The notes below the pieces were generated by a model. That model did not search any database. It worked only from the letters and a program-made list of their open reading frames with translations, and was not told the origin of the DNA. A stretch of DNA of 64,000 bases from Terriglobia bacterium (GTDB lineage: Bacteria > Acidobacteriota > Terriglobia > 2-12-FULL-54-10): the NCBI GenBank assembly GCA_965222345.1, contig CBDCTS010000007.1, forward strand, positions 191,076-255,075. Reading direction: 5' to 3'. Of the stretch, positions 24,914-51,054 are shown piece after piece (position 1 is the first letter of the stretch; the number at the start of each line of letters is the position of its first letter). The position numbers and the translations under genes are program-made.

Positions 24914-24966
24914 GGCAAGCGAATATCTGATGGCCGGAGAGCTTGGGTTTCTGGAATGATGCCCCG

Positions 24967-28250: not shown

Positions 28251-28295
28251 CGTTATTTCTGGACGATATTGAAGTCATTTTGAAAGACAAGAACC

Positions 28296-31348: not shown

Positions 31349-31410
31349 CTGGGCGAGCTGCGCGTTGGCGGGACATGCTTCGCAACTGCTGGCGGAAAAT
31401 GCCGGCGTCT

Positions 31411-32451: not shown

Positions 32452-32547
32452 ATCATCCCCGTAACACAGGTCCCTTATTTGGAATCACTGATTTGCGCAC
32501 CGGTTCACGCTGGTAAAAATATTTAATCTGCGTTAACATTACATTTT

Positions 32548-32565
32548 AATCTAACTATAGATTAC
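32548..32565. promoter_or_regulatory. palindromic iron-box-like operator (TAATCTA-ACTA-TAGATTA) in the divergent dtxR / feoA-fusion promoter region
   Basis: Perfect 7-bp inverted repeat arms with 4-bp spacer, resembling the DtxR/IdeR 19-bp iron-box consensus TTAGGTTAGSCTAACCTAA. Sits between two divergent DtxR-family genes and is flanked by 'ttacatttt' direct repeats. Confidence 0.4.
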
Positions 32566-32582
32566 ATTTTCTGTCAAGGCGG

Positions 32583-33248
32583 GTGAAGATGGCGACGATA
32601 GCGTCGGAGAACCTGTTAAAAGCAATTCTGGAGCTGAATGAGAACGGGGAAGAGGTGATCGCGGCGCGCCTGGCCGAGTTTCTCCAGATATCCTCAGCCG
32701 CGGTCAGCATGGCCTTGAAGCGATTACAGAAAAAAGGGCATGTGCGCGTTTCTCCCAAGCGCTCGATTCATCTGACCCCGGAAGGCTTTCGGAGCGCCTG
32801 CGACTTGGTGCGACGGCACCGGCTTGTGGAGCGATTGCTGACAGACATCCTCAAGATGCCTTGGGAGGGAGTCCACCAGGAGGCGGAAAAGTTGGAACAC
32901 GCCATCTCACCGGAGTTGGAAAAGCGGCTGCTGGAGATATTCGGCAAGAACGGAACATGCCCTCACGGGAGTCCTTTCACTCCTGCGCTGCATCCCAAGC
33001 GGAGACTGCGAGGCTTTCCCTTGGCCGAAGCCTCGGAAAACACCCGACTGCGGGTAGTCCGCATCGCCGAGCTTTATGAAAAGGAAACGGAATTCTTGAA
33101 CTCTCTGGCGGCAATGCGGCTGCTGCCCGGCTGCCAGCTCACACTTCTGCGCAAGACCTTCGACGGAGTCTTGGAATTGCGCGTCGGAGATCGCAAGACG
33201 GCTTTCTCGAACGAATCCGGCTCCCGCATCTGGGTAGAGAACGCCTAA
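32583..33248 (+). CDS. iron-dependent repressor, DtxR/IdeR family (cytoplasmic, with C-terminal SH3/FeoA-like domain)
   Basis: The wHTH region, the metal-site motif CPHGSP and a C-terminal SH3-like domain; 221 aa. Confidence 0.8.
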   Translation: MKMATIASENLLKAILELNENGEEVIAARLAEFLQISSAAVSMALKRLQKKGHVRVSPKRSIHLTPEGFRSACDLVRRHRLVERLLTDILKMPWEGVHQEAEKLEHAISPELEKRLLEIFGKNGTCPHGSPFTPALHPKRRLRGFPLAEASENTRLRVVRIAELYEKETEFLNSLAAMRLLPGCQLTLLRKTFDGVLELRVGDRKTAFSNESGSRIWVENA

Positions 33249-33276
33249 GGACCCTGCCGGGAAGCCTCGCTGCCTT

Positions 33277-34728
33277 CTACAAATAGGGGGACAGCAGAAT
33301 GTGAATCATCGCGACCAAGATTGAGAATACGATCGTAGCGGTTGCGCCGACCCGAATCATATTCTTCATGTCAATTTCCCCGGTGGCGAAGGCCGTTCCC
33401 GCTGCCGCGCCCGCCCAGGGCAGCATGATTCCCAAAGCCACGTTGGGAATCAGCATGGCCATCGAGGCCGGGTTGAAACCGATTTCCTGAGCTGCCGGGA
33501 TCAAGATGCTCGCGAACAACGCGGTGGCAGCCGTTCCGGAGAGGAAGTTGGTGCTGAGCGCCACCAGCGGAGCGGAGACAAACGGCAACGAATAACGTCC
33601 CAGGCCCATCTCAGCCACCATACCCTTCGCCAACTCATCCAAGCCGAACTGGCGGAGAGCGGCGATCATGGCTACCGCGGCGGTGCACAGGATCATGATG
33701 CCCCAGGGGGAGTGCTCCACTGCCTCACGCCAACTCAGAACAAACTCACCCTTTTTCCAATTCACTGGTGTGGAGAACAAGAGCAGCATGACGGCAGGCG
33801 GCACCACCCAGATGGAGAGGGCCGTTCTAGCCCACACCGCAACCTGGTGTTCCGGACCCATCGTCAGATTGATGAGAGTCGGCAGGACGAACAGGAAGAC
33901 CATGGCCAGGAATACAAAAAGGGTGCTGCGTTCGCCTGGGGTGAGAGGACCCAGCTTCTCTTGTTCCCTTCGGATAAAATCCTCCCCGCCGGGAACACGA
34001 GAAATCTCCGGCTTCAGAAACAGGCGCAGGACAAAATAAAACGCGAGCAGGGTTGCCAGAAAAATCGGTATCCCGGCGCTCATCCAGTTGAAAAAGCTGA
34101 ACTGGCGTCCGGTTATTGTTTGCAGCAAGTCAACGCTCAGGGCATTGTGCGGAATCCCCATTATGGTGGCTGTACCACCGGCCGTGGCGCCGTACAGAGC
34201 CCCCAGCGCCAGGAAGGCTCCAAAATTACTCTTCACCGATTTGCTGGTTCCCGTAATGGTCCGAACGAATGAAGCCAGAGAGATTCCTACCGGAATCATC
34301 ATGGCCACCGTAGCAGCATCGGAAACCCACATGGAAAGGCACCCCGTCACCAGCATGAAGCCGAATGCCAGGCGATAGGTGCTGCCGCTCACCACGCGCA
34401 GGGACAAAAACCAAAGGGCAAATCGCTTGGCCAGCCCGTGGCGGTGCATGGCATAGCCCATCAGAACCGTTCCCATGATCCAGAAAAAAATGTTCTGCCC
34501 ATATAGGCTGACGGTGCTGCCAATGTTCATGAGACCAAAGCCCGGAAACAACAGCAACGGCAGAAGAGAAGTAATGGCCCAGGGGATCGGCTGGGTCATC
34601 CACCACATGACCACCCAGCCGAAAATTGCCAGCGCCACGCGGCCTTCCGGAGACGAGGCTTCATAGGGAAGGAAATACAGAACGAGGAAAGTAAGAGGTC
34701 CAGCGGCGAACTGCAGCAACAGCTTCAT
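33277..34728 (-). CDS. DASS/SLC13-family (ArsB/NhaD superfamily) anion permease
   Basis: 483-aa polytopic membrane protein; internal repeat with the motifs TQPIPWAITSLLP and a second-half hairpin typical of Na+/dicarboxylate-sulfate symporters. Confidence 0.6.
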   Translation of the reverse strand: MKLLLQFAAGPLTFLVLYFLPYEASSPEGRVALAIFGWVVMWWMTQPIPWAITSLLPLLLFPGFGLMNIGSTVSLYGQNIFFWIMGTVLMGYAMHRHGLAKRFALWFLSLRVVSGSTYRLAFGFMLVTGCLSMWVSDAATVAMMIPVGISLASFVRTITGTSKSVKSNFGAFLALGALYGATAGGTATIMGIPHNALSVDLLQTITGRQFSFFNWMSAGIPIFLATLLAFYFVLRLFLKPEISRVPGGEDFIRREQEKLGPLTPGERSTLFVFLAMVFLFVLPTLINLTMGPEHQVAVWARTALSIWVVPPAVMLLLFSTPVNWKKGEFVLSWREAVEHSPWGIMILCTAAVAMIAALRQFGLDELAKGMVAEMGLGRYSLPFVSAPLVALSTNFLSGTAATALFASILIPAAQEIGFNPASMAMLIPNVALGIMLPWAGAAAGTAFATGEIDMKNMIRVGATATIVFSILVAMIHILLSPYL

Positions 34729-35074
34729 AAAACGCTCCCCTCAGGCCTGACGCCGATTGTCGGCCAGCGGCATCCGCCAAGGTAGATGTATAAACGAGAT
34801 GGCGCATTATAGACCGAAAATCGCGGAGAGGAAATGCCTATGTGCGGCGCATTGATTCGGAGAGGAACCTCAGCCTCGGTGCAGAGACACCCCTGCTGGA
34901 AGGCATATGCTTCGACAACAAGCTGTTTTGCGGGGTGGTATGGCGCAGCCGCAAAAGCAGGGACAGGCCTCCAAGGCTACCTTACCTTCGGGCTTTGCAG
35001 CAACAAGGATTGTTGGAAGTGAGCGAAGATGGGCAGCCACAATGGCTGCCCATCTTCGCAAAGGATTGTATTTC

Positions 35075-38000
35075 TTAGAAGGTCAGCTTCAGGCCGAGCT
35101 GAATCTCGCGGGAGCTGTTGTTAAGGGTCTGGGTAATGGTGCCTGCCCGTCTGTCGACTCCCCTTCTGTTTCTAAAGACGCGGGCCGCCGGATTGCGGAG
35201 TTGAGCACGGTTGAACAGATTGAAGAACTCACTGCGGAACTGGAGGCGAGTGCGCTCTCCTAACTGGAAGCTCTTGCTGAGCGTGAAGTTGATATTTCGC
35301 AGGTCCGGCCCAAGCAGCAGGTTCCGCCCCGCTGTACCGATTCTACCCGGCTCAGGCGCGGTGAAGGCGCAGGGATCAAAATATTTGACGTTCGCCCCCG
35401 TATCGAAAGCATCAATAAGCGCTTGCCGATCTCCCACTGATCCAGCCACCACTCCCTGGCAGCCGGCAGTGCTGCCGCTGGTCAACTTATTCACGTCCAC
35501 TCCGGGATTCAGGTTGGGCCGGTTCGCACGGAACAGATAGCCCCTGTCACTGATGCGCGAACCGACGGAGAAGGGAAGACCTTGCTGGAGGGTCACAATG
35601 CCGCCGATCTGCCAACCACCCAAGATAGCGTCGGCAATGCCTCCGGTATTCATGTATGGCTTGCCCGAACCAAACGGCAGTTGGTAGATTCCATTGAACA
35701 CCAAGACGTGGGGTACGTTGTAGACGGAACGGGCCCGCTCCAGGGTGCGGTCCTGACCGTATGATCCCCTCGCCCCGGTCTCACCCGTAAAGTTGGTCTC
35801 CGACTGGGAATAGTCGTCGATGGATTTCGAAAAAGTGTAGCTCGCCTGGAAGGTCAGGCCGCGGCTAAACCGTTTCTGCAGGTTCACCGCCAAAGAGCTG
35901 TAGATCGAATTCACGTCGCTGGACATCCACTCGAGATTGTTGAAATGGGGATTGGGCCGCTGTGGGGCCTCCGAAGCAGGCGGGAAAAACAGCGCACCGT
36001 CCCGTTCTACAGGAATCGAGTGGCCATTATATAACGAGCGCCGGGCCATGTGGCGGCCAATTGCGCCCACATAGCCGATCCGCAGAGCCATTTCCCCCGG
36101 CAACTGCCGCTGCAAAGTCAGGTTGTACCGGTAGAACGTCGGCGTCTTGAAGTTTTCGAAATCAAAATGCCGGGTATTCCGAAATTTTACATTAGCATCC
36201 CGAATCGCCGCCTCAATGTCCGGGAAGTTCCCGGAGACATTGATATTGGGAGCAGTTGCCCGGAAATTGAAGGGGAGCTGGGACCGGAAAGAGACAAAGC
36301 TGTTGTGCAGGATCTGGTTGTGGAAGATTCCGAAGCCCCCACTCAGGGCGGTCATCTGATCCTGGCCGAGCGCCCAGTTGAATCCCAACCGGGGCTCGAA
36401 GTTTTTGATGTGATTTTGCCACAACTGACCTGGGATCAAATCGTCGAGTGTGGCCGTGTACACGTCAGCGCCCAAGTAGGTAACCTTATTGTTGACTTCA
36501 GTCATTCCCGTGGTGAACTCCCAGCGGAAGCCCAGGTTCAACGTCAGGCTGGGGCTCACTCGGTAGTCGTCCTGGGCAAAGAACGCCAACAAGACGGTCC
36601 GGACACCGCGGTTGGTGCTGGATTCAGGCAACCGATAAGTAGCGTTGGTACCCGAGGGTCCAGCCAGCAAAAAGGCCCGCAGATCGTCGAAGTCGTAGTC
36701 GCCTTGCCAGAACGCCGGGTTGTCGGTGTTCCATTGGAAGCGCTGCGCCATGGCCCCGAACTTTATGGTATGGGGACCGCTCGTGTAGGACAGGTTATTC
36801 TCAAACTGAAAGGAATTCTGGACGTCATCGACTATGCCGATTCCGTTCGGGCCCAAGTGGTCTAGGTTACCCGCGCTGAGCGTGCCCAGCGGAACGCCCG
36901 GCGCAAAGCCCAGCGATTCGGAGGCTCCCTCCACTTGCGTGGGTTGGACATCACCGATCGATCGGCTAAACCCCACCCGGAAGGTATTCAGCAGATTGGG
37001 GCCGAAGATGTGGTCTTCCTGAATCGTCAGAATTTGCTTGGAAGTAAACGAGGCTGAGCTGGAGAGCAACCGGGCGACCCGGGTGGCGTTTGCCCGGCTG
37101 ATGGTATAGCGGCCGAACAGGAAGTCGTTCTCAGAGATATGGTGGTCAATTCTCCCCGACAGGAAGTTTTCCGAGGTGGGCTGGCTTCGGTCCTCAATGA
37201 ACTGTCCAGTGCCATCGCCATTGTCAACTCCGTTCGGGAGCGGATAGAGATTGATGTAAGGAGGAATCCGCGGGTCCACTTCCTCGCCGGGACCCAAAAC
37301 TCCGATTCCTTGGCGTCCCTCCGCCGTGGGCACTCTCCACACGTTGGTATCGTTCAGGCGCTGCCGCAATCCCTCGTATCCCACGAAGAAGAAGGTCTGG
37401 TCTCGCCGGATGGGCCCACCGATGGTGGCCCCGAATTGGTTCCGTTTGAAGGGCGGCACCACATCATCCACGTCCTCTAACTGCGGCGCGTCCATCTTGT
37501 TGTTGCGAACGAACTCGAAGGCCGAGCCGTGCCACTCATTGGTTCCCGAGCGGCTGACGGCGTTGACGACGGCGCCGGCGTTGCGGCCGTACTCCGCTTT
37601 GCCGTTGGTGGTGACCACCTGAAATTCACGGATGGTGTCCACGCCCAACTGCACCCCGGCCGCGCTGCCTGGATTCTGGTTTCGAGTGTCCATCAGGTCG
37701 GTGCCGTCAAGCCGGAAACTGTTGGCATCCGTGCGGGCGCCGGCCACCGACAACTGCGGGGCGAAACCATAGTTGGCGCCCCTGCCCTGGCCAATGTGGG
37801 GCGTAACCGCTCCCGGGTTTAAGGTGACCAGGTCCGCAAAGCTGCGTCCGTTGAGCGGCAATTCCCGCAACTGCTCCTGGCTTACGTTCGTCGCGACCGA
37901 GGAGATGGTGGTCTCCACCACCGGGGCCTCGCCCGTCACCACCACTTCTTGCTCTACCGCACCGACCTGGAGGGTGAAATTCAGTGTCAGCTCCCGGCCA

Positions 38001-38299
38001 AACTCCAGGACGATTTCCTGGCGTACCTCGCGGTTAAAGCCGGCCATCGAAACCGTAATCTGATAGGTTCCCGGTTGCAGTTCCCCGACCCGGTAAAGCC
38101 CCGACGGACCGCTCTCTCTGGCGCGGGTAATTCCGGTTTCGACATTGGTGACAGTCACCTCGGCCCCCGCAATGACTGCTTCGGTGGCGTCCTGCACCAC
38201 GCCGACTATGGCGCTGCTGGAGATCTGGCCAAAGGTTGCCCTCGGCACGCCCAAACAGACCAACAATCCAACGATCAATACCCACTGAATCCTTTTCAT
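35075..38299 (-). CDS. TonB-dependent outer-membrane receptor with N-terminal carboxypeptidase-regulatory-like domain
   Basis: Signal peptide; CarboxypepD_reg-like beta-sandwich (VVGVVQDATEAVIAGAEVTVTNVETGITR...YQITVSMAGF); plug and 22-strand barrel regions; C-terminal aromatic residue (..LGLKLTF). 1074 aa. Confidence 0.85.
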   Translation of the reverse strand: MKRIQWVLIVGLLVCLGVPRATFGQISSSAIVGVVQDATEAVIAGAEVTVTNVETGITRARESGPSGLYRVGELQPGTYQITVSMAGFNREVRQEIVLEFGRELTLNFTLQVGAVEQEVVVTGEAPVVETTISSVATNVSQEQLRELPLNGRSFADLVTLNPGAVTPHIGQGRGANYGFAPQLSVAGARTDANSFRLDGTDLMDTRNQNPGSAAGVQLGVDTIREFQVVTTNGKAEYGRNAGAVVNAVSRSGTNEWHGSAFEFVRNNKMDAPQLEDVDDVVPPFKRNQFGATIGGPIRRDQTFFFVGYEGLRQRLNDTNVWRVPTAEGRQGIGVLGPGEEVDPRIPPYINLYPLPNGVDNGDGTGQFIEDRSQPTSENFLSGRIDHHISENDFLFGRYTISRANATRVARLLSSSASFTSKQILTIQEDHIFGPNLLNTFRVGFSRSIGDVQPTQVEGASESLGFAPGVPLGTLSAGNLDHLGPNGIGIVDDVQNSFQFENNLSYTSGPHTIKFGAMAQRFQWNTDNPAFWQGDYDFDDLRAFLLAGPSGTNATYRLPESSTNRGVRTVLLAFFAQDDYRVSPSLTLNLGFRWEFTTGMTEVNNKVTYLGADVYTATLDDLIPGQLWQNHIKNFEPRLGFNWALGQDQMTALSGGFGIFHNQILHNSFVSFRSQLPFNFRATAPNINVSGNFPDIEAAIRDANVKFRNTRHFDFENFKTPTFYRYNLTLQRQLPGEMALRIGYVGAIGRHMARRSLYNGHSIPVERDGALFFPPASEAPQRPNPHFNNLEWMSSDVNSIYSSLAVNLQKRFSRGLTFQASYTFSKSIDDYSQSETNFTGETGARGSYGQDRTLERARSVYNVPHVLVFNGIYQLPFGSGKPYMNTGGIADAILGGWQIGGIVTLQQGLPFSVGSRISDRGYLFRANRPNLNPGVDVNKLTSGSTAGCQGVVAGSVGDRQALIDAFDTGANVKYFDPCAFTAPEPGRIGTAGRNLLLGPDLRNINFTLSKSFQLGERTRLQFRSEFFNLFNRAQLRNPAARVFRNRRGVDRRAGTITQTLNNSSREIQLGLKLTF

Positions 38300-38537
38300 G
38301 GTTTTCTCCTCAAAATAGACGATCCAACCCTCTTACAGAGCACCCCCGCCTGGAGGCCGCCGTTTAAAGCAGATCGGACTGAAAACAAATAGACTAGACA
38401 CACAATACAATTGCTAAAGCTACAATTCAAAAACCCTTATTGTCAAGGCCTTTTTAGGCTTTGGGCCACAAAAAAGGGTTACATCTTCTCATTCCGGCAT
38501 CCTGCGGGGAACGCCAAGCAAAGCCGCCAGCGGCATC

Positions 38538-40439
38538 CTACTCGGCCCTCGCCGTCGCGTACCGGGATTCGTTGCTAAATTCCAGCTGTGGCCCGATGGG
38601 GTCCCGGCCCAGCTCTTGGGCAAACTCGTTTCGCAATACCTCAATCTTTCCGCCCACCACCGTCAGGACGGGAAAGAGATTGGGAATCTCTTCTTCGGGA
38701 ACTGTGAAGTAATCCTGGTTCAATACCACCAGATCGGCCAGTTTGCCCGCTTCGAGAGTTCCTAATTCGTTCTCCCGCATGACAAACTCGGCCGGCCAGG
38801 ACGTCATCATCTTCATCAGCGTCATGCGGTCAATCGCCTCTTCCGGCGCCACCATCGCCCCGTACTCGTTCCTGCGGGTGATCAGGGCGTAACCCTGGCT
38901 GAAGTAGGTTTCGCCCACGTTTCCGCTTATCCCGGCTTCGTTTTCGTAGACCGTTCTCACTCCGCCATCGATCAAACTCTTGACCGGCGAAATCCAGTTG
39001 GCGTATTGCATGCCGTAGCGTTCCAGCCACGGGTAGCTTCGGCTCAGCACGTTGCCGCCGCAACTGATCATCATGCCGAGACGGGCCATGCGGGGAATCT
39101 GATCCGGACGCGGATAGAAACCGCAATGGTCGGAGCTGAACCGCCGCGAGCGGATATAGTCCAGCGTGATGGTGGGATCGAGCGTCATGGCCTCTTCCAG
39201 GGTGTCCATGAAATAATCCACCGCCTTGTCCCCATAGGCATGGCCTGCGGCCACCCGTTCCTTCGACAGGACTGCGGTCAGAACGGCTTTCCCGGTGGCC
39301 GAGCCGGGCGTGTCCCGGCAATACTCTCGCTCTTTGATCTCCGGAGGAGCTTCCATGGTGCTGCAAATCATCGGGGGCCCGGAATCCAAGTTGCCCAGCC
39401 CCACTCCGGCAGACCAGAAGTAATCGTTTCCAAGCCCTTCCATGTCACCCAGCCGCATGTAAAAAGAGGCCGGGTCGGAATTGCCCTGGAATCCAAAGTA
39501 ATGCGTGTAGGCATACCGGATGGGCATGCGGTTCTCCCGAATGAGAATCTGGTAGGCATTGAGGAATTGCAGGCCCATCATATGCGATGAGAACGTGGTA
39601 ATGCCCGCCGCCGCATTTTTCCGCAGGCCTTGTTCCACAATATCGGCCAGTTCTCTGGGCCTGATCCGAAAGTAGCCGTCCACCAGCAAACCCCTTCGAT
39701 ATTGCGTCAGTTCGCCGACTCCTGCGTCGTCGGTGGTGTCCATGACCACTTCCGGAACTTTCCCGTATATCTTTTCAATGGCCTCTTTCCCCCGCGTATT
39801 GATCATGTACGCCGGATGGGACAGAAGAAACACCGGATTGTCGGGAGCGAGCGCGTCCAAATCCTTGAGGCCCATTTGATCTTCCTGCAAAAATTTCACT
39901 CCAATCCCTGTCCCGGAGCCGGGATTTTCCGGATCATTGGTGGGCAAAGTAATAAAGGCCCACTGGTCCGGGTCCGTTCCGGTCATGCGCTCCTTCAGGA
40001 CCAGTTCAATGCCCTTTTTCAACTCCTCGTAGGACATCCCTCCGACTACAAAGCGCCTGCCCATGGTATCGAAGGCAGCCGGATTCTGGCTGACCCACCA
40101 GTTCACCTCATTGTTGTGTATGTGAGTGTGGGAGTCCACAAAGCCCGGGACCACCGTTTTGCCCTGCAAGTCGATTCTTTCGGTGTTGGGGCCGGCGTAG
40201 GAGAGGATTTTGGCGTCGTCTCCGAGAGCCTGGATTCTGCGGTTGTGGACCGCGACAGCTTGGAAGATACTTCCCGGCGAAGAACCCGTGGAAGTGTCAT
40301 CCATCGTCACGATCCTGCCGTTGTAAAGGATCAAGTCCGGATAGGAGATGATGGCCACCGGCACGGTCGCCGTCTCCTGCGCAGCCGCCCAGGAAACCAT
40401 CACACACAACACCGCACACATTCGTATCAGGTTACCCAT
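38538..40439 (-). CDS. secreted metal-dependent amidohydrolase (Amidohydro_3 family), paralogue 1
   Basis: Signal peptide (MGNLIRMCAVLCVMVSWAAAQ); metal-binding HxH (DSHTHIH); C-terminal ...VVGGKIEVLRNEFAQELGRDPIGPQLEF shared with paralogues 2 and 3. Confidence 0.8.
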   Translation of the reverse strand: MGNLIRMCAVLCVMVSWAAAQETATVPVAIISYPDLILYNGRIVTMDDTSTGSSPGSIFQAVAVHNRRIQALGDDAKILSYAGPNTERIDLQGKTVVPGFVDSHTHIHNNEVNWWVSQNPAAFDTMGRRFVVGGMSYEELKKGIELVLKERMTGTDPDQWAFITLPTNDPENPGSGTGIGVKFLQEDQMGLKDLDALAPDNPVFLLSHPAYMINTRGKEAIEKIYGKVPEVVMDTTDDAGVGELTQYRRGLLVDGYFRIRPRELADIVEQGLRKNAAAGITTFSSHMMGLQFLNAYQILIRENRMPIRYAYTHYFGFQGNSDPASFYMRLGDMEGLGNDYFWSAGVGLGNLDSGPPMICSTMEAPPEIKEREYCRDTPGSATGKAVLTAVLSKERVAAGHAYGDKAVDYFMDTLEEAMTLDPTITLDYIRSRRFSSDHCGFYPRPDQIPRMARLGMMISCGGNVLSRSYPWLERYGMQYANWISPVKSLIDGGVRTVYENEAGISGNVGETYFSQGYALITRRNEYGAMVAPEEAIDRMTLMKMMTSWPAEFVMRENELGTLEAGKLADLVVLNQDYFTVPEEEIPNLFPVLTVVGGKIEVLRNEFAQELGRDPIGPQLEFSNESRYATARAE

Positions 40440-40637
40440 AGAATCACCGCCTTCAGCAGATGGATTACAGTATCACAAACGGAGCCCAGCTTACCCAAAA
40501 GCCAATATGCGGTAGTGGGTCAGTTCCCGTCAGGCACAACTCCACCCGATTTACCAGGGCACGGGTTTAACCCGTGCCCTGAAGTTGAAACGAACTCACT
40601 ACCCAATCTGCTTATCCTGAAAAGTTGCAGCTCTCTG

Positions 40638-42551: not shown

Positions 42552-42697
42552 TGGAGCTGACCTCCTTAGTTTTGCTAATGTCGCTAGTTTGAAGCGGCTG
42601 GTTTGGCCGCGAAAACGCAGGCCGTCATCCATTCGCTTGCCGCATCTTTATAAATTTCCGCACCTTGCACCTAACGGACCGGCCGGACTCGGACAAG

Positions 42698-44626
42698 TTA
42701 CATGGCCGGCGGCCGCTCCGGAGGGGAATAAAGAGGATCGTTCCGGAACTCGATCTGCGGCCCGACGGGATCACGGCCCAGTTCCTGAGCCAACTCGTTG
42801 CGCAACACGACGATCTTCCCTCCAACAACCGTCATGAGCGGGATCGTGTTCGGCATCTCCTCTATCGGTATGGTGAAATAGTCCTTGCTGAGCACCAGGA
42901 AGTCCGCGAACTTGCCCGGTTCGAGCGTTCCCAGCACATCCTCCTTCAGGACGAAGAGCGCTGCCCAGGAGGTCATCATTTTCATCAGGGTGATGCGGTC
43001 AATGGCCTCCTCCGGCGCAACCAGCGCTCCCTGCTCGTTTCTTCGGGTCAGCAGCGTGGAGGCATCCCGGAAATAGCTGGCGGCTGTATTGCCGCGACGG
43101 ACGGTGCTGCCTCCCTCGTCCTCGAGCACCACCCGCACTCCGGCCTCGATGGCGCTGCGGACCGGAGAGATACGGTTGGCGTATTCCGGGGAATATCTTT
43201 GCAGCCAGGGATAGCTTCGGCTGAGCATATTCCCCCCGCAGGCGATTGTGATGCCGAGCCGTTTCATGCGGGGAAGCTGCTCTTTGCGCGGATAAAAACC
43301 GCAGTGGTCGGTGGTGATGCGCCGGGAACGGATATATTCCAACGTGATGGCCGGATTGTCGCGCATCGCCTCCTCAATGGCGTCCATTACGTAATCGAAC
43401 GACTTATCGCCATAAGCATGTCCCACCTGAACTCGCTGATAGTTGGCGATCGCCGTTTTCGTGGCCTCATAGGTGAGCGTGCCCGCAAAATTCTGGCAGA
43501 ACTCCTTTTCCTTTACGGCACGCGGCGCCTCCATGGTGGAACAAATCCGGGGCGGGCCGGAATCCACGCTTCCCAGCCCCACGGCAGTTTGCCAGAGATA
43601 GTCGTTCCCCATCCCGGCCATGTCGCCCATTCTCCGGTAGAAATTTCCCGCTTCCTGGTAGCCCGCCTGGAAACCAAACCAGTGGGTGTAAGCGAAACGG
43701 AGCGGCATGCGCTTTTGCCGGGCCAGCATGTTGAAAGCGTCCAGAAATCGCAGCCCCATGATGTGAGAGTTATAGGTGGTAATTCCTACGGCGGCGCTTT
43801 TCGCCAGGCCTTCCTCCACAATCTCGGCAAGCTGACCGACCCGGGTATGAAAATACTGATCGATAATCAATTCCCGGTTGTATTGAGCAGCCGTATTGTG
43901 GGCGTTGCCGTGCTCATCGACCGCTTCGGCGGAGAGCTGGGAACCGTAGAGGTTCTCCATGGCGGCGACGGCTGCCGAGTTCATTACGTAGGCGGGGTGG
44001 GAGTGCAACAAAACCGGATGATTCGGGGCTATTTGGTCCAACCGCTGCCTGGGAAACTTCCGCTCCTGCAGAAACGCCACCCCCGGCGCCATTCCCGAGG
44101 GACCCCCTCTGCTTCCCACGGCAACAAAAGCCCACAGACCGGGCTGCGCTTCCTCTACATGCTGCTCGACCGACAGCGCGACCCCCTGCTCCAACTCCGA
44201 GTCTCTCGTGCCCGCAATCACATAGGCCTTGGACACGGCCTCCAGCACCTCCGGATTCTGGCTGAGCCAGTAGTTCAAGGAGGTGTTGTGGATGTGCGTG
44301 TGGGCGTCGATGATGCCAGGCATCACCGTCCTGCCGTTCACGTCGATCCTCTCCGTTTCGGGACCTGCCATGCGCAGGATTCGGGCATTGCTCCCGACCG
44401 CCTGAATCTTGCCGTTCCGGATCGCCATCGCCTCTGCCGTTGTTCCCTGCGACGTGTTCAGTCCGAAAGAGACGTCATCCATCGTGGCGATCTTGCCGTT
44501 GTGTATGATACGGTCCGGGTAGGCGGCAATCTCCTCCGGGACGGTAACCATATCCTGCGCGCTCATCGTCCCGCATAGCAACAACAGGCTGACGGCCTCC
44601 AACACCACTCCCCGTAATTGTTTCAT
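42698..44626 (-). CDS. secreted metal-dependent amidohydrolase (Amidohydro_3 family), paralogue 3
   Basis: Signal peptide; DAHTHIHN motif; long collinear identity with paralogue 2 (e.g. RFLDAFNML.RQ.RMP.RFAYTHWFGFQAGY). Confidence 0.8.
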   Translation of the reverse strand: MKQLRGVVLEAVSLLLLCGTMSAQDMVTVPEEIAAYPDRIIHNGKIATMDDVSFGLNTSQGTTAEAMAIRNGKIQAVGSNARILRMAGPETERIDVNGRTVMPGIIDAHTHIHNTSLNYWLSQNPEVLEAVSKAYVIAGTRDSELEQGVALSVEQHVEEAQPGLWAFVAVGSRGGPSGMAPGVAFLQERKFPRQRLDQIAPNHPVLLHSHPAYVMNSAAVAAMENLYGSQLSAEAVDEHGNAHNTAAQYNRELIIDQYFHTRVGQLAEIVEEGLAKSAAVGITTYNSHIMGLRFLDAFNMLARQKRMPLRFAYTHWFGFQAGYQEAGNFYRRMGDMAGMGNDYLWQTAVGLGSVDSGPPRICSTMEAPRAVKEKEFCQNFAGTLTYEATKTAIANYQRVQVGHAYGDKSFDYVMDAIEEAMRDNPAITLEYIRSRRITTDHCGFYPRKEQLPRMKRLGITIACGGNMLSRSYPWLQRYSPEYANRISPVRSAIEAGVRVVLEDEGGSTVRRGNTAASYFRDASTLLTRRNEQGALVAPEEAIDRITLMKMMTSWAALFVLKEDVLGTLEPGKFADFLVLSKDYFTIPIEEMPNTIPLMTVVGGKIVVLRNELAQELGRDPVGPQIEFRNDPLYSPPERPPAM

Positions 44627-44841
44627 ATGACACCGGTCTCCTTGAGATTTCCCGAAGCCGACTGCTTAGCCCTCTCAAAAGGGATAATACCAGAATCGCG
44701 CACTTTTGCCAGTCAATGAAAATCCAGCCGCCTGGCTGCACGCATTCAGGATGAGAATGCAGCCCAACGCGGCCAAAGTCGAAATACCTCAAAAAGAAAA
44801 AGGCGACGGGCAATATCGTCACCCTGCCGCAAGAATCCCGT

Positions 44842-46755
44842 CTACCGCTGCGAAGTCCGCCTCGAGGTCAGTTCTTCGTAGGTGGCAATCACGGCTCCGC
44901 TGGGCTGTAAGCTATATTCCCCGGCAAACTGCGGATGGACGAAAATGACTTTCCCGTCGAACACGGTCATCTGAGGCTGCATCTCGCTCAACTCTTCGGC
45001 GGGAATCGTCATGTAGTCGCGGTCCAGCACCACCAGGTCGGCCAGCTTGCCCGCTTCAATCGATCCCAGCTTGTCCGGCTTGAGCACATACTCGGCAGCC
45101 CATAGGGTGATCATCTGCAAGGCGGTGGTTCGGTCCACGCGTTCCTGTTCGCCCCATACCTTCCCGTCACGCGCTACCCTCGTCATCAACAACTCCAGCT
45201 CGTGCCACACGTTCATGTCACGGTCCGCCTCATACACCACCTTGACGCCCGCATCCAACATGCTCTTCACCGGAACAACGAAATTGTTCGCCACTTCATC
45301 ATTGAAGGCTCTGGCTATGTCCGGAGAACCCTCAATATACTTTGGCGCGCAACTGAACATCACGCCCAGCCGGGCTGCCCTCGGGAAATCCACAGGGTCT
45401 ACATACCGGCAGTGATCAAAGGCCCATCCCTGGGTCGCCGAAGGTCCCAATTGCTGTTGTATCTCTTCAATCATATCCAGCAGGTTCCCCACCGAGCGAT
45501 CCCCGGCCACATGGGTATTGGCAAATCGGATTCCGTTGCGAGCGGTGGCGAACACCCAATCCCGAAAGTAGTTGTCCTGCACCGGACCCGCCCTCCCGCT
45601 TGCGCCCCGAAATTCGTCGTCGGTATGGCACTGCCCCGTTGGCCACCAGTTGTCGATGGCTTCCATGGCGCCGAGTTGTTTTTTCTGATTGGAGCAGGCC
45701 CGGGTCCCCCCGCCATCCACTGCGGTGGGGGCCATTGAGGTGATCCATAGCTTGTCATCGCCGCTCCCGGTCTGATTGGCGAAGGGTTTCAGACCATTTT
45801 CCAGATCCGTGATGGCGCCAAAATAATCTTGCATTCCGCCCGCCAGCCGGATCGTCAGCTCCCCTCGCAACTCCAGCAGCTTGTACGCTTCCTCGCTGTA
45901 GCGAGGCAGCCGCGTGGATACCGTGGTGAGCCCGGTGGCCGCCAGCTCTTCCAGATACTTCTTGTAAACAGGCGCGACATCCTCCGGAGCCGGGTCCGGT
46001 AAATACTGCAACAGCAGCCGGCTCGCGGGCGGTTCCAGGTGGCCATCCGGCCTGCCGGCCTCGTCAATCCAGAAACGCCCGTACCTCCGGACGAAATCAC
46101 CATACTTCCCCATGATAATTTCCATGGCCTTGCCATTCAGCAAAAAGCCGTTGAAGTCCGGGATTCCGAGAGAGAGAACTATGGGATTGTCGGGGGTTAC
46201 CTTATCCAGCTCCCATTGGTTCAACTCGTCATAGAGAATTTTCACCTGCTCGACCGAGCCGCCCCTCCGGAACTGCAGCTGGTTTTCAAAGTAAATCCAT
46301 TCGCCGGGTCTGAATTGATACCTCTCCATCAGCCCCTGAATCTGGTCCAGCACGTCTTCTTTGCTTCCTACGCCCCGCCAATCCACCGGATACTGACGCA
46401 TTCTCTCCGGCCCTAACTCCCCGCCATAAACGCTCTCCGTATAGTTGTGGAGATGCAGATGCGTGTCGATCAAGCCGGGGATGACCGTTTTTCCCTTCAG
46501 GTCGATCACCAGCGATTCCGGCCCGGCCAGGCGCAGGATGTCGGGGTCTGCTCCCACCGCCGTAAATTCTTGACCGCTGATGGCGACCGCTTCGGCAGTG
46601 GAAAAGTTGCTGTCGACGGTAAGGATTTTTCCATTATGCAAAACAATATCTGCTCCTCCTGCACCTCCTTGTCCCATGAGCCAGGAGGCAGAAAGGACGG
46701 TCCAGAAGATTAGTTGTAGCGTACAGACGGAAACTTTCCCGAATAGCAGTTGCAT
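44842..46755 (-). CDS. secreted metal-dependent amidohydrolase (Amidohydro_3 family), divergent paralogue 4
   Basis: Signal peptide, DTHLHLHN metal motif and similar length; more diverged from paralogues 1-3. Confidence 0.75.
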   Translation of the reverse strand: MQLLFGKVSVCTLQLIFWTVLSASWLMGQGGAGGADIVLHNGKILTVDSNFSTAEAVAISGQEFTAVGADPDILRLAGPESLVIDLKGKTVIPGLIDTHLHLHNYTESVYGGELGPERMRQYPVDWRGVGSKEDVLDQIQGLMERYQFRPGEWIYFENQLQFRRGGSVEQVKILYDELNQWELDKVTPDNPIVLSLGIPDFNGFLLNGKAMEIIMGKYGDFVRRYGRFWIDEAGRPDGHLEPPASRLLLQYLPDPAPEDVAPVYKKYLEELAATGLTTVSTRLPRYSEEAYKLLELRGELTIRLAGGMQDYFGAITDLENGLKPFANQTGSGDDKLWITSMAPTAVDGGGTRACSNQKKQLGAMEAIDNWWPTGQCHTDDEFRGASGRAGPVQDNYFRDWVFATARNGIRFANTHVAGDRSVGNLLDMIEEIQQQLGPSATQGWAFDHCRYVDPVDFPRAARLGVMFSCAPKYIEGSPDIARAFNDEVANNFVVPVKSMLDAGVKVVYEADRDMNVWHELELLMTRVARDGKVWGEQERVDRTTALQMITLWAAEYVLKPDKLGSIEAGKLADLVVLDRDYMTIPAEELSEMQPQMTVFDGKVIFVHPQFAGEYSLQPSGAVIATYEELTSRRTSQR

Positions 46756-47224
46756 CAAAGCACCTCCAGCCATGACGTGTTCATAGGGTGATCCACCCCT
46801 TCATGGACTTCTGTTAGCCTGATGATTTACTTTGCATGGTTTTGTCCGCCAGCGACAAATAGTATCTCTGAGTTCCCAAGACTCAAAAACATATTCCCGC
46901 TCTGAGGTTCCTTCAAAAGCTTTCCAGGAACCAGCATGTCAGAATAGCATCCAGAAACTGGTAAGAGATTATCACGCTTTCTTTCCCAAAGGAAACAGCC
47001 GACCGTATTCTCTTATTCCCTGTAGAAATCCAACACGCCATCAAACAACCCTCAACCTGCCACAAATTGCTTTACCCTTCCCCCTCGTGTAAGCTTCCCC
47101 CATATTTGCAATCCGGCGGGGCACTGACCACCGCCGGGAGGGAAAACCAACGCCGCGTCCAAGTTCCCTTCCGTATCTTTTCGACCGCGAAGGGTCAACC
47201 ACGCAGGGTCAATGAGGAGGAGCC

Positions 47225-48649
47225 ATGCGGAAACATCTTTGGGGAGTCGCAGGCATACTGGCGTGCTGGGTCCTGGCTCAGCCACAGCCCGTCGCCGGTC
47301 AGGAATCGAATTTCCGGCAGAACGCCTGGGCGCGGATCGCGGAAAGCGATGCCGCTCAAGTGGAGGCGCTGGCCGGAGATTATAAGGACTTCTTGCACCG
47401 TGCCCGTCACGAACTACTGGTGGTGGCGGAGGCCGAACGGCTGGCGCAAGCGCAGGGCTTTCGCCCGATTGAATCCGTGGATCAACTCAACCCGGGCGAC
47501 AGGGTTTACGCGGTGAACCGAGGGCGGGCAATGATTCTTGCGGTGGTGGGGAAAACACCACTTACGGAGGGGTCTGTCCTGATTGCTTCCCACATCGACA
47601 CACCACGTATCGAGCTGAAAGCGAATCCGCTGTATGAAAGCGAGGGGTTTGCGATGTTCCAAACCACCTACCACGGCGGCATCAAAAGCTACCAGTGGGC
47701 GAGCGTACCGCTGGCGATGGTGGGGCGGATCAATAAGAAAGACGGCAGCGAGGTCAACATAGCCATGGGGCTGGACGGCGAGCCCTATCTGGTGATCCCC
47801 GATCTAGCGCCGCACGTAGACCGGGATTTCCGGGAGCGGAGCCAGCGCGAGGTTCTGAAAGCGGAGGAACTCGACCCCGTAGTGGGCAGCCGCCCGGACG
47901 CCAATGGTTCGGTGACCGGGACGGTGGAGGCCGTGCTGAAACAGAAGTATGGGCTGACGATGGAAGATTTCGTCAGCGCGCAACTGGCGCTGGTGCCCGC
48001 GCTGCCAACGGCGGACGTTGGCCTGGACGCCAGCATGATTGGAGCCTACGGCCACGACGATCTGCTCTGCTCCTTTGTGTCGCTCCGGGCGCTGTTTGAC
48101 GTGCCCGCCCCGGCGCAGACGGCGATGGTCTATCTGGCGGCGAATGAAGAGGTGGGCAGCCACAACGTGATGGGGGCACAGTCGCCTTTTCTGGCCGATA
48201 CGGTCTTGACGCTCCTCGAGAAGCAATCGGGGCGCGAGGCCGGGCTGCGGGCTCACCGGCAAGCGCTGTCCGCCATCCACGCCATCTCCGCCGACGTGAC
48301 CACGGGAGTCCATCCAACGTTTGCCAGCGTACAGGAAAAGACGAACGCGGCGCGGCTGGGCGGCGGCGTGGTGATCAAGCGCTATGGGCGCGGGACTGAA
48401 CCTACTACGGAAATGCTGGCGCAGGTGCGCCGGTTGCTGGACGACAACGATATTCCCTGGCAGACACATACTCACAAGGTCGGCACCGGCGGCGGCAGCA
48501 CGCTGGGCCGCTACCTGAGCGACGATGGGATGGATACAGTGGATATCGGGGTGGCAATCCTGGCCATGCACGCCACCTGGGGGCTGGCATCGAAGGTTGA
48601 CCTGTGGTCGCTCTACCGGTATTTCCTGGCAAGTTATGCGGCAGAATAG
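47225..48649 (+). CDS. M18-family aminopeptidase (aspartyl aminopeptidase-like) with signal peptide
   Basis: M18/M42 aminopeptidase motifs (SHIDTPR, a later region containing GHDD, and EEVGS). N-terminal cleavable signal (MRKHLWGVAGILACWVLAQPQPVAGQ). Confidence 0.8.
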   Translation: MRKHLWGVAGILACWVLAQPQPVAGQESNFRQNAWARIAESDAAQVEALAGDYKDFLHRARHELLVVAEAERLAQAQGFRPIESVDQLNPGDRVYAVNRGRAMILAVVGKTPLTEGSVLIASHIDTPRIELKANPLYESEGFAMFQTTYHGGIKSYQWASVPLAMVGRINKKDGSEVNIAMGLDGEPYLVIPDLAPHVDRDFRERSQREVLKAEELDPVVGSRPDANGSVTGTVEAVLKQKYGLTMEDFVSAQLALVPALPTADVGLDASMIGAYGHDDLLCSFVSLRALFDVPAPAQTAMVYLAANEEVGSHNVMGAQSPFLADTVLTLLEKQSGREAGLRAHRQALSAIHAISADVTTGVHPTFASVQEKTNAARLGGGVVIKRYGRGTEPTTEMLAQVRRLLDDNDIPWQTHTHKVGTGGGSTLGRYLSDDGMDTVDIGVAILAMHATWGLASKVDLWSLYRYFLASYAAE

Positions 48650-48899
48650 CTGATATGCCGAACCGAAGACCGAGGCATGGGATCTTCCCCGAGCAAGGGG
48701 AAAGGCCAGAAGATAATCCCCCGGCAGGCGATGCCCAGGCTCCGGCGGCCACATGGCCAGCTAGAAACCGGTGCTACGAACCGATCAGGGCGAGAGTGAT
48801 TATTGGAAAATCCAGACAGAGTCTATAGAATGAGGCAGGAGCCGGCTGATGCTGGCCGGTCAGCCGTGAGAACACTTCACCCAGGGGGAATTCCCTGAA

Positions 48900-51052: not shown

Positions 51053-51054
51053 CA

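Follow-up and report, generated by a model that had tools for sequence, protein, structure and literature searches.

In the account of this locus to which we lean, if only slightly, the genes for three exported amidohydrolases (AH2, AH3 and AH4) and for a TonB-dependent receptor (TBDR) are the core of a dedicated scavenging unit, with a fourth amidohydrolase (AH1) separate and a neighbouring M18 aminopeptidase unrelated. The genes are located in a 64-kb stretch of DNA, here called the window, of an uncultured soil-type acidobacterium of the Terriglobia, Solibacteraceae- or Ca. Sulfopaludibacter-like. A first-pass annotation had read the region as a PUL-like pathway of outer-membrane import, periplasmic hydrolysis and inner-membrane uptake. 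The coupling of AH2–4 to the TBDR is supported by synteny, while the M18 enzyme probably drops out, its contexts elsewhere being unrelated, and the DASS permease is a doubtful member, being atypical and found in variable contexts. The seven open reading frames reported for the region (four Amidohydro_3 proteins, the TBDR, the DASS permease and the M18 enzyme) are all intact and lie where they had been placed, as judged by Pfam and ORF checks. The features are, in order of position:

33277–34728, minus strand: DASS-fold permease (SLC13/VcINDY-like), 483 residues; Pfam Na_sulph_symp, 141.9 bits
35023–35059, minus strand: 17-bp stem-loop after the TBDR gene; the enclosing 70 nt fold at −35.1 kcal/mol
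35075–38299, minus strand: TBDR, 1074 residues; CarboxypepD_reg, Plug and OMP_b-brl_4 (610 bits)
38538–40439, minus strand: AH4, YtcJ-like amidohydrolase with export signal, 633 residues; Pfam Amidohydro_3
40555–40581, minus strand: 13-bp perfect stem-loop after AH3; the enclosing 80 nt fold at −36.6 kcal/mol
40638–42551, minus strand: AH3, YtcJ-like amidohydrolase with export signal, 637 residues from M28; Pfam Amidohydro_3
42698–44626, minus strand: AH2, YtcJ-like amidohydrolase with export signal, 642 residues; Amidohydro_3, 146.7 bits
44684–44712, minus strand: promoter-like site past the AH1 hairpin
44790–44825, minus strand: intrinsic-terminator-like hairpin with T-run, directly after AH1
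44842–46755, minus strand: AH1, YtcJ-like amidohydrolase with export signal, 637 residues from M7; Amidohydro_3, 166 bits
47225–48649, plus strand, divergent: M18 "aminopeptidase 1"-type enzyme with signal peptide; Peptidase_M18, 229 bits

Two start sites were moved: that of AH3 to 42551 (M28), with the reading frame open to 42632, and that of AH1 to 46755 (M7), with the reading frame open to 46773. Both starts are preceded by a ribosome-binding motif (AAGGAGG and GGAGG, respectively) and agree with an independent gene call. The six amidohydrolases mentioned in the first-pass annotation are AH1–4 plus two more, at 54532–56577 (minus strand) and 56749–58569 (plus strand). The GC content of the cluster, 0.56–0.59, is the same as that of the remainder of the window.

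AH1–4 match Pfam Amidohydro_3 with 119–166 bits (gathering cut-off 29.7; E-values 4e-34 to 3e-48). They belong to a large clade confined to Acidobacteria, of which each genome contains many copies, frequently in tandem, and whose members carry the JGI label "predicted amidohydrolase YtcJ". Signal-peptide-like N-termini, called with a simple heuristic (positive n-region, hydrophobic core and AxA-type site) rather than with SignalP, are present in AH1–4, the TBDR and the M18 enzyme; by the same heuristic they are found in 108 of 120 AH2-family homologues and 105 of 125 representatives of the wider family. The five window paralogues have three invariant cysteine columns in common, the AH2–4 clade has four, and a DsbA-like gene is located near the cluster, a 51% homologue of which also adjoins an amidohydrolase gene at locus L024. 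The N-termini, the invariant cysteines and the DsbA-like neighbour support export, and AH1–4 are plausibly exported metallo-amidohydrolases, active by prediction.

AH2, the sole paralogue modelled (AF2; pLDDT 79.8, pTM 0.80), is predicted to fold into a (beta/alpha)8 barrel to which an N/C-terminal beta-sandwich is attached. The nearest folds are YtcJ-like (COG1574 / cd01300): the top Foldseek matches are 3ICJ (E 6e-22) and 3IGH (9e-22), Pyrococcus structures of unknown function, with TM-scores of 0.67–0.69 per target. The N-terminal beta-sandwich, the barrel, the HxH motif, the HAxGD-type beta5 histidine and the (D/E)H beta6 histidine are common to these structures and the window enzymes, and the beta5, beta6 and beta8 motifs align to both. 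However, sequence identity is 16–19%, and the window enzymes are about 150 residues longer and have a signal peptide, four cysteines conserved in the AH2–4 clade, a glutamate at beta8 in AH2–4 and no carboxylated beta4 lysine that could be placed.

When metal-binding residues and secretion signals were checked in AH1–4, the histidine ligands were found to be kept and signal-peptide-like N-termini to be present, in agreement with the earlier description of secreted amidohydrolases. The HxH after beta1, the histidine after beta5 and the histidine after beta6 can all be aligned. In AH2 numbering these are H109, H111, H403 and H441, shared by each of the five long window paralogues; among 130 family sequences they are conserved in 128, 123, 129 and 130, respectively. 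The beta8 acid is an aspartate in AH1 (EAD) and AH5 and a glutamate (E504) in AH2–4, where it may substitute in the ligand role. This glutamate is at least 90% conserved in the AH2–4 clade, and family-wide the position is Asp in 76 and Glu in 13 of the 130 sequences. Neither the window paralogues nor the 130-sequence alignment contain a conserved lysine on the predicted beta4 strand (AH2 residues 344–353); an aspartate near this strand, D355, is conserved in 101 of 130. Since the carboxylated beta4 lysine is lacking, the metal site is likely to be mononuclear.

Because this lysine cannot be placed and the beta8 aspartate is replaced in AH2–4, catalytic activity is presumed for these enzymes. 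The same two features, the first seen in a five-way as well as in the 130-sequence alignment, would fit AH2–4 being catalytically dead or re-purposed as binding proteins. We consider this very unlikely: the four histidine ligands are kept in 123–130 of the 130 sequences, the beta8 residue remains acidic, and conservation this strong over many paralogues implies selection on the metal site. Amidohydrolase subtypes with a mononuclear site function without the lysine. The Streptomyces epsilon-lysine acylases SmELA and SgELA are YtcJ-like PF07969 enzymes acting on N-acyl amides; the ligands listed for SgELA are H, H, H, H and D, with no lysine, and its oxyanion-hole histidine lies about 100 residues past the HxH (PMC10699109). 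Set beside that published description, AH2–4 have a near-invariant histidine, H210, at the same spacing.

The metallo bile-salt hydrolases BwBSH1 and BwBSH2 of Bilophila wadsworthia (bioRxiv 2026, PMC13081902) are secreted PF07969 proteins with a Sec signal, are encoded in groups of two or three neighbouring paralogues (BwBSH1 and BwBSH2 are about 51% identical) and cleave the N-acyl amide bond between bile acid and taurine, the HxH, two histidines and an acid ligand being essential. They are 945 residues long, with an extra C-terminal domain, contain KCX373 in a dinuclear site and adjoin a type II secretion system (PMC13081902). By this description, the window enzymes are similar in being secreted Amidohydro_3 enzymes with co-localised paralogues, and different in having a TBDR rather than a type II secretion system as neighbour and an environmental rather than a gut habitat. 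Compared with the published features, their length of 633–642 residues, without the extra C-terminal domain and without the beta4 lysine, speaks against their being metallo bile-salt hydrolases. D-aminoacylase or N-acyl-D-amino-acid deacylase (1M7J, 1RJP) was also rejected as an identity, as family-profile matches cover only residues 65–123 (E about 8e-5), the N-terminal beta-sandwich and HxH region. The N-substituted formamide deformylase NfdA is a further YtcJ-like PF07969 amide hydrolase; neither NfdA nor SmELA/SgELA is known to be associated with a TBDR, unlike AH2–4. Those YtcJ-like enzymes that have been characterised hydrolyse amides, and some of them are exported; by analogy, AH1–4 may be read as amide hydrolases too, with N-acyl amide conjugates as the putative substrate class. 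The N-acyl or acidic amino-acid conjugates proposed in the first-pass annotation are a guess that would fit the few characterised YtcJ-like enzymes.

Pairwise, AH2 and AH3 are 67–68% identical, close to the 70% estimated earlier, AH4 is 54% identical to each of them, and AH1 is a distant paralogue (29–30% identity to AH2–4, 34% to AH5). The recent tandem duplication that had been proposed for AH2 and AH3 is not supported, as separate orthologues of the two are found in other genomes: an AH2 orthologue (90% identity) is present at locus L004, and an AH3 orthologue (88%) adjoins DASS and DtxR genes at loci L002/L003/L005. AH4 orthologues are located at L004 (93%) and L011/L046–48 (73%), each directly followed by an orthologous TBDR.

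The TBDR matches Plug with 25.7 bits (cut-off 23.9), CarboxypepD_reg with 65.9 bits and, full-length over 838 positions, the beta-barrel family OMP_b-brl_4. A putative TonB box, QEVVVTGE, was located by eye. There is no SusD-like gene beside it, the flanking genes being AH4 and the DASS permease, with no other ORF of at least 100 residues in the gaps, and a SusC/SusD-type polysaccharide utilisation locus was thus rejected. Orthologues with 81% identity are embedded in the amidohydrolase arrays of two other genomes, the order being AH2 (90%), AH3 remnant, AH4 (93%), TBDR (81%) at L004 and AH, AH (73%), TBDR (81%), AH at L011/L046–48. The AH2-AH3-AH4-TBDR core array is conserved in relatives, which supports a coupling of hydrolases and receptor. 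Other TBDR paralogues, with 32–37% identity, directly adjoin other amidohydrolase paralogues at L006, L019, L022, L034 and L015, the two genes of a pair being co-oriented and 4 to about 400 bp apart. This recurrence across paralogous pairs in several genomes makes outer-membrane import coupled to hydrolysis reasonable for AH2–4 and the TBDR. A TBDR is present within 600 bp at seven of 31 amidohydrolase loci, a lower bound since many contigs are short; the chance background, by a rough guess, is 5–10%. The coupling is not obligatory, as the other 24 loci have no adjoining TBDR.

These 24 loci are also what would be expected if there were no dedicated pathway and the region were a duplication and rearrangement hot spot of a hugely expanded family of exported, broad-specificity amidohydrolases, with TBDR, DASS permease and M18 enzyme incidental. 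Each amidohydrolase would then work on its own, probably outside the cell, as part of a general scavenging of nitrogen and carbon, in genomes rich in TBDRs and secreted hydrolases. We regard this as possible, yet unlikely. The family does have at least eight loci in each of two MAGs, and the wider profile collects, at E<=1e-30, 2288 representatives of clusters formed at 50% identity; the make-up of the array differs among relatives, AH3 being reduced to a remnant between the AH2 and AH4 orthologues at L004; AH5, AH6 and an S33 alpha/beta hydrolase, all exported, are found in the same window; there are hairpins between the genes; and the contexts of the M18 and DASS genes are not conserved. However, the orthologous AH4-TBDR pair is kept in two other genomes (73–93% and 81% identity), and chance poorly explains why different TBDR paralogues pair with different amidohydrolase paralogues, closely and in one orientation.

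The intergenic regions suggest several transcripts rather than a single operon. The T-run hairpin after AH1 and the promoter-like site past it suggest that AH1 is transcribed separately. The stem-loop after AH3, which has no T-run, may be a terminator, a processing site or a stabiliser, and the one after the TBDR gene separates it from the DASS gene, 346 bp downstream. These three structures disfavour one operon, as do the gaps of 146–346 bp and the fact that each gene has a Shine-Dalgarno site of its own. Motif searches found no shared operator, sigma-54 promoter or riboswitch that would tie the cluster genes together.

The permease had been described as a DASS/SLC13 dicarboxylate-type protein. 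The fold is confirmed by the Na_sulph_symp match and by homology to VcINDY along its full length (E 7e-29, residues 12–472), but it is not a canonical dicarboxylate carrier. The SNT hairpin-tip motifs of VcINDY bind Na+ and carboxylates; in the alignment both are replaced, by SDA (residues 136–138) and SGT (residues 397–399). The SDA motif is shared by 106 of 121 aligned sequences (120 homologues and the window protein), and the second motif is conserved as SG[T/V/L] across the orthologue set. With these replacements and a TIGR00785 score of 181.3 bits, below the trusted cut-off of 198.6, neither substrate nor coupling ion should be assumed. Orthologues are mostly found away from amidohydrolases, and twice near DtxR/FeoA-ZIP-multicopper-oxidase genes: the order DASS-DtxR-ZIP-multicopper-oxidase recurs at L002/L003/L005, and a 60% orthologue is near FeoA/ZIP/MCO genes at L052. 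In the window, the DASS gene converges, 28 bp apart, with the gene for a DtxR/FeoA-domain repressor, next to which is feoAB. The association with metal-homeostasis neighbours is at least as good as that with hydrolases; membership of the hydrolase-receptor unit is doubtful, and the permease probably stands outside it.

These neighbours could also mean that the locus serves metal acquisition, the TBDR importing a metal chelate, for instance a siderophore of the amide-linked, citrate type, the amidohydrolases degrading it, the atypical DASS/CitMHS-like permease taking up the metal-carboxylate product and the DtxR-family repressor controlling all of them. Apart from the gene order, the aspartate aligned with the asparagine of the first SNT motif and a match of the permease to Pfam CitMHS are in its favour; the latter is probably a cross-hit, CitMHS and Na_sulph_symp being related families. 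We consider this reading very unlikely as well. The sole DtxR-type palindrome, TAATCTATAGTTAGATTA (32547–32564), is confined to the divergent feoA/dtxR promoter; the amidohydrolase cluster contains no copy of it, even allowing three mismatches, and no IdeR/DtxR consensus box was found there. The L002/L003/L005 arrangement combines amidohydrolases and DASS without a TBDR, and no siderophore biosynthesis or ferric-reductase genes were seen.

The M18 enzyme scores 228.9 bits against Peptidase_M18 and 445.9 bits against NF002600, under the equivalog cut-off of 529. It belongs with the "aminopeptidase 1" proteins (PRK02256; 2GLJ, 1Y7E, 2GLF) and aligns to 2GLJ over residues 32–463 (E 5e-91), with the motifs HIDTPR, NEEVGS, ISADV and LAMHA of the metal and catalytic surroundings identical or conservatively substituted. 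It differs from 2GLJ in an additional N-terminal segment of about 25–30 residues, signal-peptide-like by the heuristic. Such a segment had been called unusual, but 89 of the 120 nearest homologues have one; those without include both named Firmicutes, Desulfotomaculaceae and Peptoniphilus. An M18 gene lies beside the array only at L001, where genes are 89–100% identical to those of the window, and L049, with the same lengths and order, while orthologues with 75% and 66% identity have unrelated contexts away from amidohydrolase clusters. Most probably this exported peptidase has nothing to do with the array and is a neighbour by chance.

TBDR-centred utilisation loci are known as the SusC/D PULs of Bacteroidota and the TBDR "CUT" loci of Xanthomonas and Caulobacter. 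The scavenging unit proposed here is similar to them in that a TBDR is grouped with hydrolases that are exported, and perhaps with a carrier of the inner membrane; the N-terminal CarboxypepD_reg extension of its receptor is one that SusC-type receptors also have. It differs from them in having no SusD-like lipoprotein, glycoside hydrolases or linked sensor or regulator, its hydrolases being amidohydrolases instead, and in its doubtful operon.

With AH2-AH3-AH4 and the TBDR as functional core, the receptor would take up an organic compound that contains amide bonds and exceeds porin size. The three Sec-exported, metal-dependent amidohydrolases would cut its amide bonds, either in the periplasm or, ahead of import, at the cell surface, and their divergence (54–68% identity) may cover related substrate variants. 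AH1, the distant paralogue transcribed apart, would have a related task, and the products would enter the cell via inner-membrane carriers, for which the adjacent atypical DASS-fold permease is one candidate. For its host, the locus is probably an ordinary, yet uncharacterised, nutrient-scavenging unit.

The window is a portion of a 3.77-Mb contig from a metagenome assembly (ENA). The seven open reading frames named in the first-pass annotation were found intact in it, with coordinates in agreement, and two further amidohydrolases (AH5 and AH6) lie at higher coordinates:

33277-34728, minus strand: permease of the DASS fold (Pfam Na_sulph_symp, 141.9 bits)
35075-38299, minus strand: TonB-dependent receptor of 1074 amino acids (CarboxypepD_reg, Plug and OMP_b-brl_4, 610 bits)
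38538-40439, minus strand: amidohydrolase AH4 (Pfam Amidohydro_3)
40638-42632, minus strand: amidohydrolase AH3 (Pfam Amidohydro_3), start shifted to 42551
42698-44626, minus strand: amidohydrolase AH2 (Pfam Amidohydro_3)
44842-46773, minus strand: amidohydrolase AH1 (Pfam Amidohydro_3), start shifted to 46755
47225-48649, plus strand: M18 protein (Pfam Peptidase_M18), divergent from the array across a 451-bp gap
54532-56577: AH5, fifth YtcJ-like paralogue, probable exported hydrolase
56749-58569: AH6, sixth amidohydrolase, of Amidohydro_1 type, probable exported hydrolase

The starts of AH3 and AH1 were shifted in line with an independent gene call and the positions of Shine-Dalgarno sites. 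By a simple heuristic of hydrophobicity, charge and AxA motif, AH1 to AH4, the receptor and the M18 protein all have signal-peptide-like N-termini, and inspection of the same N-termini revealed no lipobox. In AH5, a downstream methionine (M54), followed by a hydrophobic stretch, is possibly the true start, while AH6 resembles Xaa-Pro-dipeptidase-like Amidohydro_1 proteins and carries a C-terminal 'choice-of-anchor Z' repeat. Their region (54532-59837), which also encodes a signal-peptide-bearing S33 alpha/beta hydrolase, is part of a hydrolase-rich island; a DDE transposase is located at 62484-63860. Between the array and AH5 (50588-53219), a 2Fe-2S small subunit is encoded, which in the homologous locus L001 is a called gene of 154 aa matching Fer2 and Fer2_2, together with a molybdopterin-binding large subunit that matches Pfam TAT_signal weakly, below threshold; the pair looks like IorAB or an aldehyde-oxidase-like hydroxylase. 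Horizontal acquisition, considered from base composition, was rejected, the GC content of the cluster being that of the rest of the window.

The arrangement had been interpreted as a scavenging locus resembling an import, hydrolysis and uptake pathway, with the receptor, the hydrolases, the permease and the M18 protein as members. The observation itself was confirmed, and the interpretation is supported in part: recurrent synteny favours the coupling of hydrolases and receptor, the contexts of M18 orthologues speak against membership of that gene, and the varying contexts of the DASS gene make its membership doubtful. In the reading we prefer, with somewhat better than even confidence, AH2 to AH4 and the receptor would form a scavenging module in which TonB-powered import is coupled with amide-bond hydrolysis by exported, probably mononuclear, metallo-amidohydrolases; AH1 would be a distant, separately transcribed paralogue, the DASS permease a doubtful member and the M18 protein an unrelated neighbour.

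Pairwise comparison gives 67-68% identity between AH2 and AH3, close to the 70% or so first estimated; AH4 is 54% identical to either, and AH1 shares only 29-30% with AH2 to AH4, being nearer to AH5 (34%). The recent tandem duplication proposed for AH2 and AH3 was rejected on the evidence of a neighbour-joining tree and of an AH3 remnant in L004, the locus of the closest other metagenome-assembled genome (MAG). The tree contains an AH2 orthologue in L004 and AH3 orthologues in three other loci (L002, L006 and L007) and, as separate orthologues exist in other MAGs, the split must be older than those lineages. In L004, the order is AH2 (90% identity), AH3 remnant, AH4 (93%) and receptor (81%), so the array is ancestral to both lineages. 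The remnant (L004 3433-3819, MAG B32T1B5), located between the AH2 and AH4 orthologues, has residues 1-32 joined directly to 539-637, which reflects either a deletion within the gene or the collapse of paralogous repeats during assembly; the array is decaying or mis-assembled there.

A more distant genome (L011/L046-48) contains an NMT1-type binding protein, an AH gene, a second one (73% to AH4), a receptor (81%) and another AH gene, followed by a UbiD-family decarboxylase, a small Zn-ribbon protein and a DASS permease of a different type (27% identical). Other receptor paralogues (32-37% identical) adjoin other AH paralogues in L006, L015, L019, L022 and L034. A receptor is found at 600 bp or less in 7 of 31 AH loci, a lower bound because many contigs are short, with a binomial P of 7e-4 or 0.03 for chance adjacencies of 5% or 10%, both rates being rough guesses; the coupling is thus recurrent, not obligatory. 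The main rival explanation, that no dedicated pathway exists and the locus is just a hot spot for duplications within an exported enzyme family of broad action, can draw on the multi-copy nature of the AH family, with at least eight loci in each of two MAGs, and has to account for the repeated receptor neighbours; we regard it as possible, with a probability well short of even.

Full-length AH2 relatives were found only in MAGs of Acidobacteria/Terriglobia (Ca. Sulfopaludibacter, Solibacteraceae and 'Terriglobia bacterium'), the nine remaining AH2-matching loci (Gammaproteobacteria and one Flavobacteriales MAG) matching over just 21-58 residues around the HxH motif. With a wider-family profile, built from the five long AH paralogues of the window, 2288 of 1.84 billion cluster representatives (50% identity) were matched at E<=1e-30. 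No NCBIfam model names the AH proteins, matches being sub-threshold and confined to the N-terminal region, and family members are labelled 'predicted amidohydrolase YtcJ' by JGI. Literature searches on TonB-dependent receptors with Amidohydro_3, or on amidohydrolase clusters of Acidobacteria, returned nothing relevant.

The AlphaFold2 model of AH2 (pLDDT 79.8, pTM 0.80) finds its best matches in 3ICJ and 3IGH, two uncharacterised YtcJ-like hydrolases (E 6e-22, TM 0.67-0.69 per target, 16-19% identity), followed in the ranking by mononuclear amidohydrolases (triazine hydrolase, imidazolonepropionase and adenosine deaminase). Since PDB searches with single proteins and with the family profile gave partial alignments only, metal ligands were placed by combining partial HMM alignments to 3ICJ and 3IGH with multiple alignments (AH2 numbering, 130 family sequences):

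H109/H111: HxH motif, conserved in 128/130 and 123/130
H403: beta5 histidine (HAYGD), conserved in 129/130
H441: beta6 histidine (DHC), conserved in 130/130
E504: beta8 acid, Glu in AH2 to AH4 and Asp in AH1 and AH5; family-wide Asp in 76 and Glu in 13

In these alignments, a carboxylated lysine on beta4 could not be placed in any of the window paralogues; instead, an aspartate (Asp355) is at this position in 101 of the 130 sequences. BwBSH1 is a dinuclear member of the family with a carboxylated lysine, KCX373 (PMC13081902), and no lysine figures among the published ligands of SgELA, a YtcJ-like epsilon-lysine acylase (PMC10699109). Like SgELA, AH2 to AH4 have a histidine (H210) at the spacing of the oxyanion-hole histidine. 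The ligand pattern, as aligned, fits a mononuclear site, and from the sequences we infer hydrolase activity. With the ligand histidine positions conserved, the paralogues have kept their metal-binding residues, as the original proposal presupposed; that they are dead enzymes, a reading the altered beta4 and beta8 positions might bring to mind, is very unlikely. The active-site deviations of the AH2 to AH4 clade are worth noting and, together with the remoteness from solved structures, mean that these enzymes could be of biocatalytic interest.

Four cysteines are invariant in the AH2 to AH4 clade, three of these columns being invariant in AH1 and AH5 too. Downstream of the M18 gene, a DsbA-like protein of 389 residues (48900-50069) with a C-terminal DsbA/Thioredoxin_4 domain is encoded, of which a homologue with 51% identity divergently adjoins another AH-family gene (L024 2143-3261, a Ca. 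Sulfopaludibacter MAG). The invariant cysteines and the nearby DsbA-like gene fit AH export into an oxidising compartment, and the DsbA-like protein possibly serves the cysteine-rich hydrolases as their own disulfide oxidoreductase.

Orthologues of the M18 protein at 75% and 66% identity are located in unrelated gene contexts, and the gene is found beside the AH array only in the near-identical loci L001 and L049. Its signal peptide had been called unusual; as 89 of its 120 nearest homologues have signal-peptide-like N-termini, an exported form is normal in its clade. The few named homologues with such N-termini are from Acidobacteria, Planctomycetota and Thalassotalea, and those without include the two named as Firmicutes.

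DASS orthologues (53-82% identity) are common in Acidobacteria, and only the one with 82% identity (L002/L003/L005) adjoins AH genes, with no receptor there. Elsewhere, its neighbour is a di-haem oxidoreductase in L050 and, in L053, an EutA-like protein together with an ABC transporter. In L051 it adjoins a glucose/sorbosone dehydrogenase gene, and an amidohydrolase of shorter length (479 aa) is encoded some 2 kb downstream. The order in L002 is DASS-DtxR-ZIP-multicopper oxidase, and in L052 the gene is near FeoA, ZIP and multicopper oxidase genes, so the permease goes with the metal-homeostasis genes beside it no less closely than with hydrolases. Two different DASS types are present at the ends of AH/receptor arrays (in the window and in L046-48), so the permease may yet be functionally linked to the arrays. 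When aligned with VcINDY (E 7e-29), both SNT hairpin-tip motifs are replaced, by SDA (aa 136-138) and SGT (aa 397-399), and the score is below the TIGR00785 cut-off; the protein, first described as dicarboxylate-type, should therefore not go by the name of dicarboxylate permease. The SDA motif is shared by 106 of 121 aligned DASS sequences, which suggests a distinct subfamily. In two contexts, a UbiD-family decarboxylase directly adjoins a DASS gene: L052 (9001-12073) and L046-L048 (19603-21893), the latter with the different DASS type at the end of the AH/receptor array; the two may form an acid uptake and decarboxylation pair.

The genes from AH1 to DASS are separated by 215, 146, 198, 238 and 346 bp, and each has its own Shine-Dalgarno site. 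Three stem-loops stand between them:

44790-44825: hairpin with T-run after AH1, followed by a promoter-like site
40555-40581: perfect 13-bp stem after AH3
35023-35059: 17-bp stem after the receptor gene

The inferred transcription units would be AH1, AH2-AH3, AH4-receptor and DASS. No DtxR-type operator, sigma-54 promoter, Rfam element or significant shared motif links the cluster genes: no riboswitch or known RNA element was found in 32000-50500 at E<=0.1, window-wide sigma-54 matches are below chance with none inside the cluster, and the six intergenic regions share 23 near-matches of 11-mers, with about 16 expected by our own estimate. The 12-mer GATGCCGCTGGC occurs twice, immediately after the AH4 stop codon (38526-38537) and some 35 bp ahead of the DASS start codon (34763-34774), and an inverted repeat with a similar core, TTGTC-N7-GACAA, precedes AH1 by about 85 bp (46842-46858). 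Neither reaches statistical significance. Sigma-54 promoters in the cluster would have tied it to a two-component system at 23558-27267, made up of a HAMP/PAS histidine kinase and an NtrC-type sigma-54 response regulator. This system lies beside OppB/OppC-like ABC permeases, in a region (23558-29117) that is 4-10 kb away from the cluster.

The divergent feoA/dtxR promoter region (32452-32582, GC 0.38) contains the perfect palindrome TAATCTATAGTTAGATTA (32547-32564), which overlaps a sigma-70-like promoter close to the consensus. It has no second copy in the window, even with three mismatches allowed, and is likely the operator of the adjacent DtxR-family repressor. The neighbouring region (29187-32451) encodes a 346-aa protein with an Fe_dep_repr_C domain joined to FeoA domains, upstream of FeoB, which is split into a G-domain frame (30584-31474) and a membrane frame (29187-30587) with a 4-nt overlap, called as separate genes in L049 as well. 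Iron/DtxR control of the AH cluster was rejected as unsupported, since neither this palindrome nor the IdeR/DtxR consensus is copied there, even with three mismatches. A metal or siderophore linkage of the locus, to which the neighbours of the DASS orthologues might point, is the least probable of the readings considered.

To our knowledge, all characterised YtcJ-like enzymes cleave N-acyl amides, and some are secreted. NfdA is one of these enzymes. Others are the secreted, co-localised metallo bile-salt hydrolases of Bilophila (PMC13081902) and the epsilon-lysine acylases of Streptomyces (PMC10699109). By analogy, N-acyl amide conjugates would be the likeliest class of substrate. The usual substrates of UbiD enzymes are carboxylic acids that are aromatic or unsaturated, so the decarboxylase in L046-48 could hint at an acid of this sort as product. 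More speculatively, and with a low probability for the whole, the AH2 to AH4 clade and its paired receptors could be an unrecognised, Acidobacteria-specific type of 'amide utilisation locus'. TonB-powered import would then be coupled to YtcJ-like enzymes with a new subtype of active site, without carboxy-lysine, with Glu for the beta8 Asp and with the conserved Asp355 and cysteine set. The system could be specialised for one defined class among the natural products with amide linkages, for example lipoamino acids, N-acyl amines or the amide-bound nitrogen of organic matter in soil, and the SDA-motif permeases could be a new DASS subfamily whose substrate is metal-complexed or at any rate no dicarboxylate.

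The locus is a plausible scavenging unit of kinds already known, YtcJ-like amidohydrolases and utilisation loci centred on TonB-dependent receptors, and involves no new principle; its two notable features are the AH2 to AH4 active site and the SDA-type DASS subfamily. A major part of the organic nitrogen in soil is amide-bound. Acidobacteria, which rank with the most abundant bacteria there, have many TonB-dependent receptors, almost none of which, as far as we know, has an assigned substrate. The exported AH family, large, lineage-specific and repeatedly paired with receptors, provides a concrete, testable handle on the possible harvest of amide compounds by Acidobacteria.
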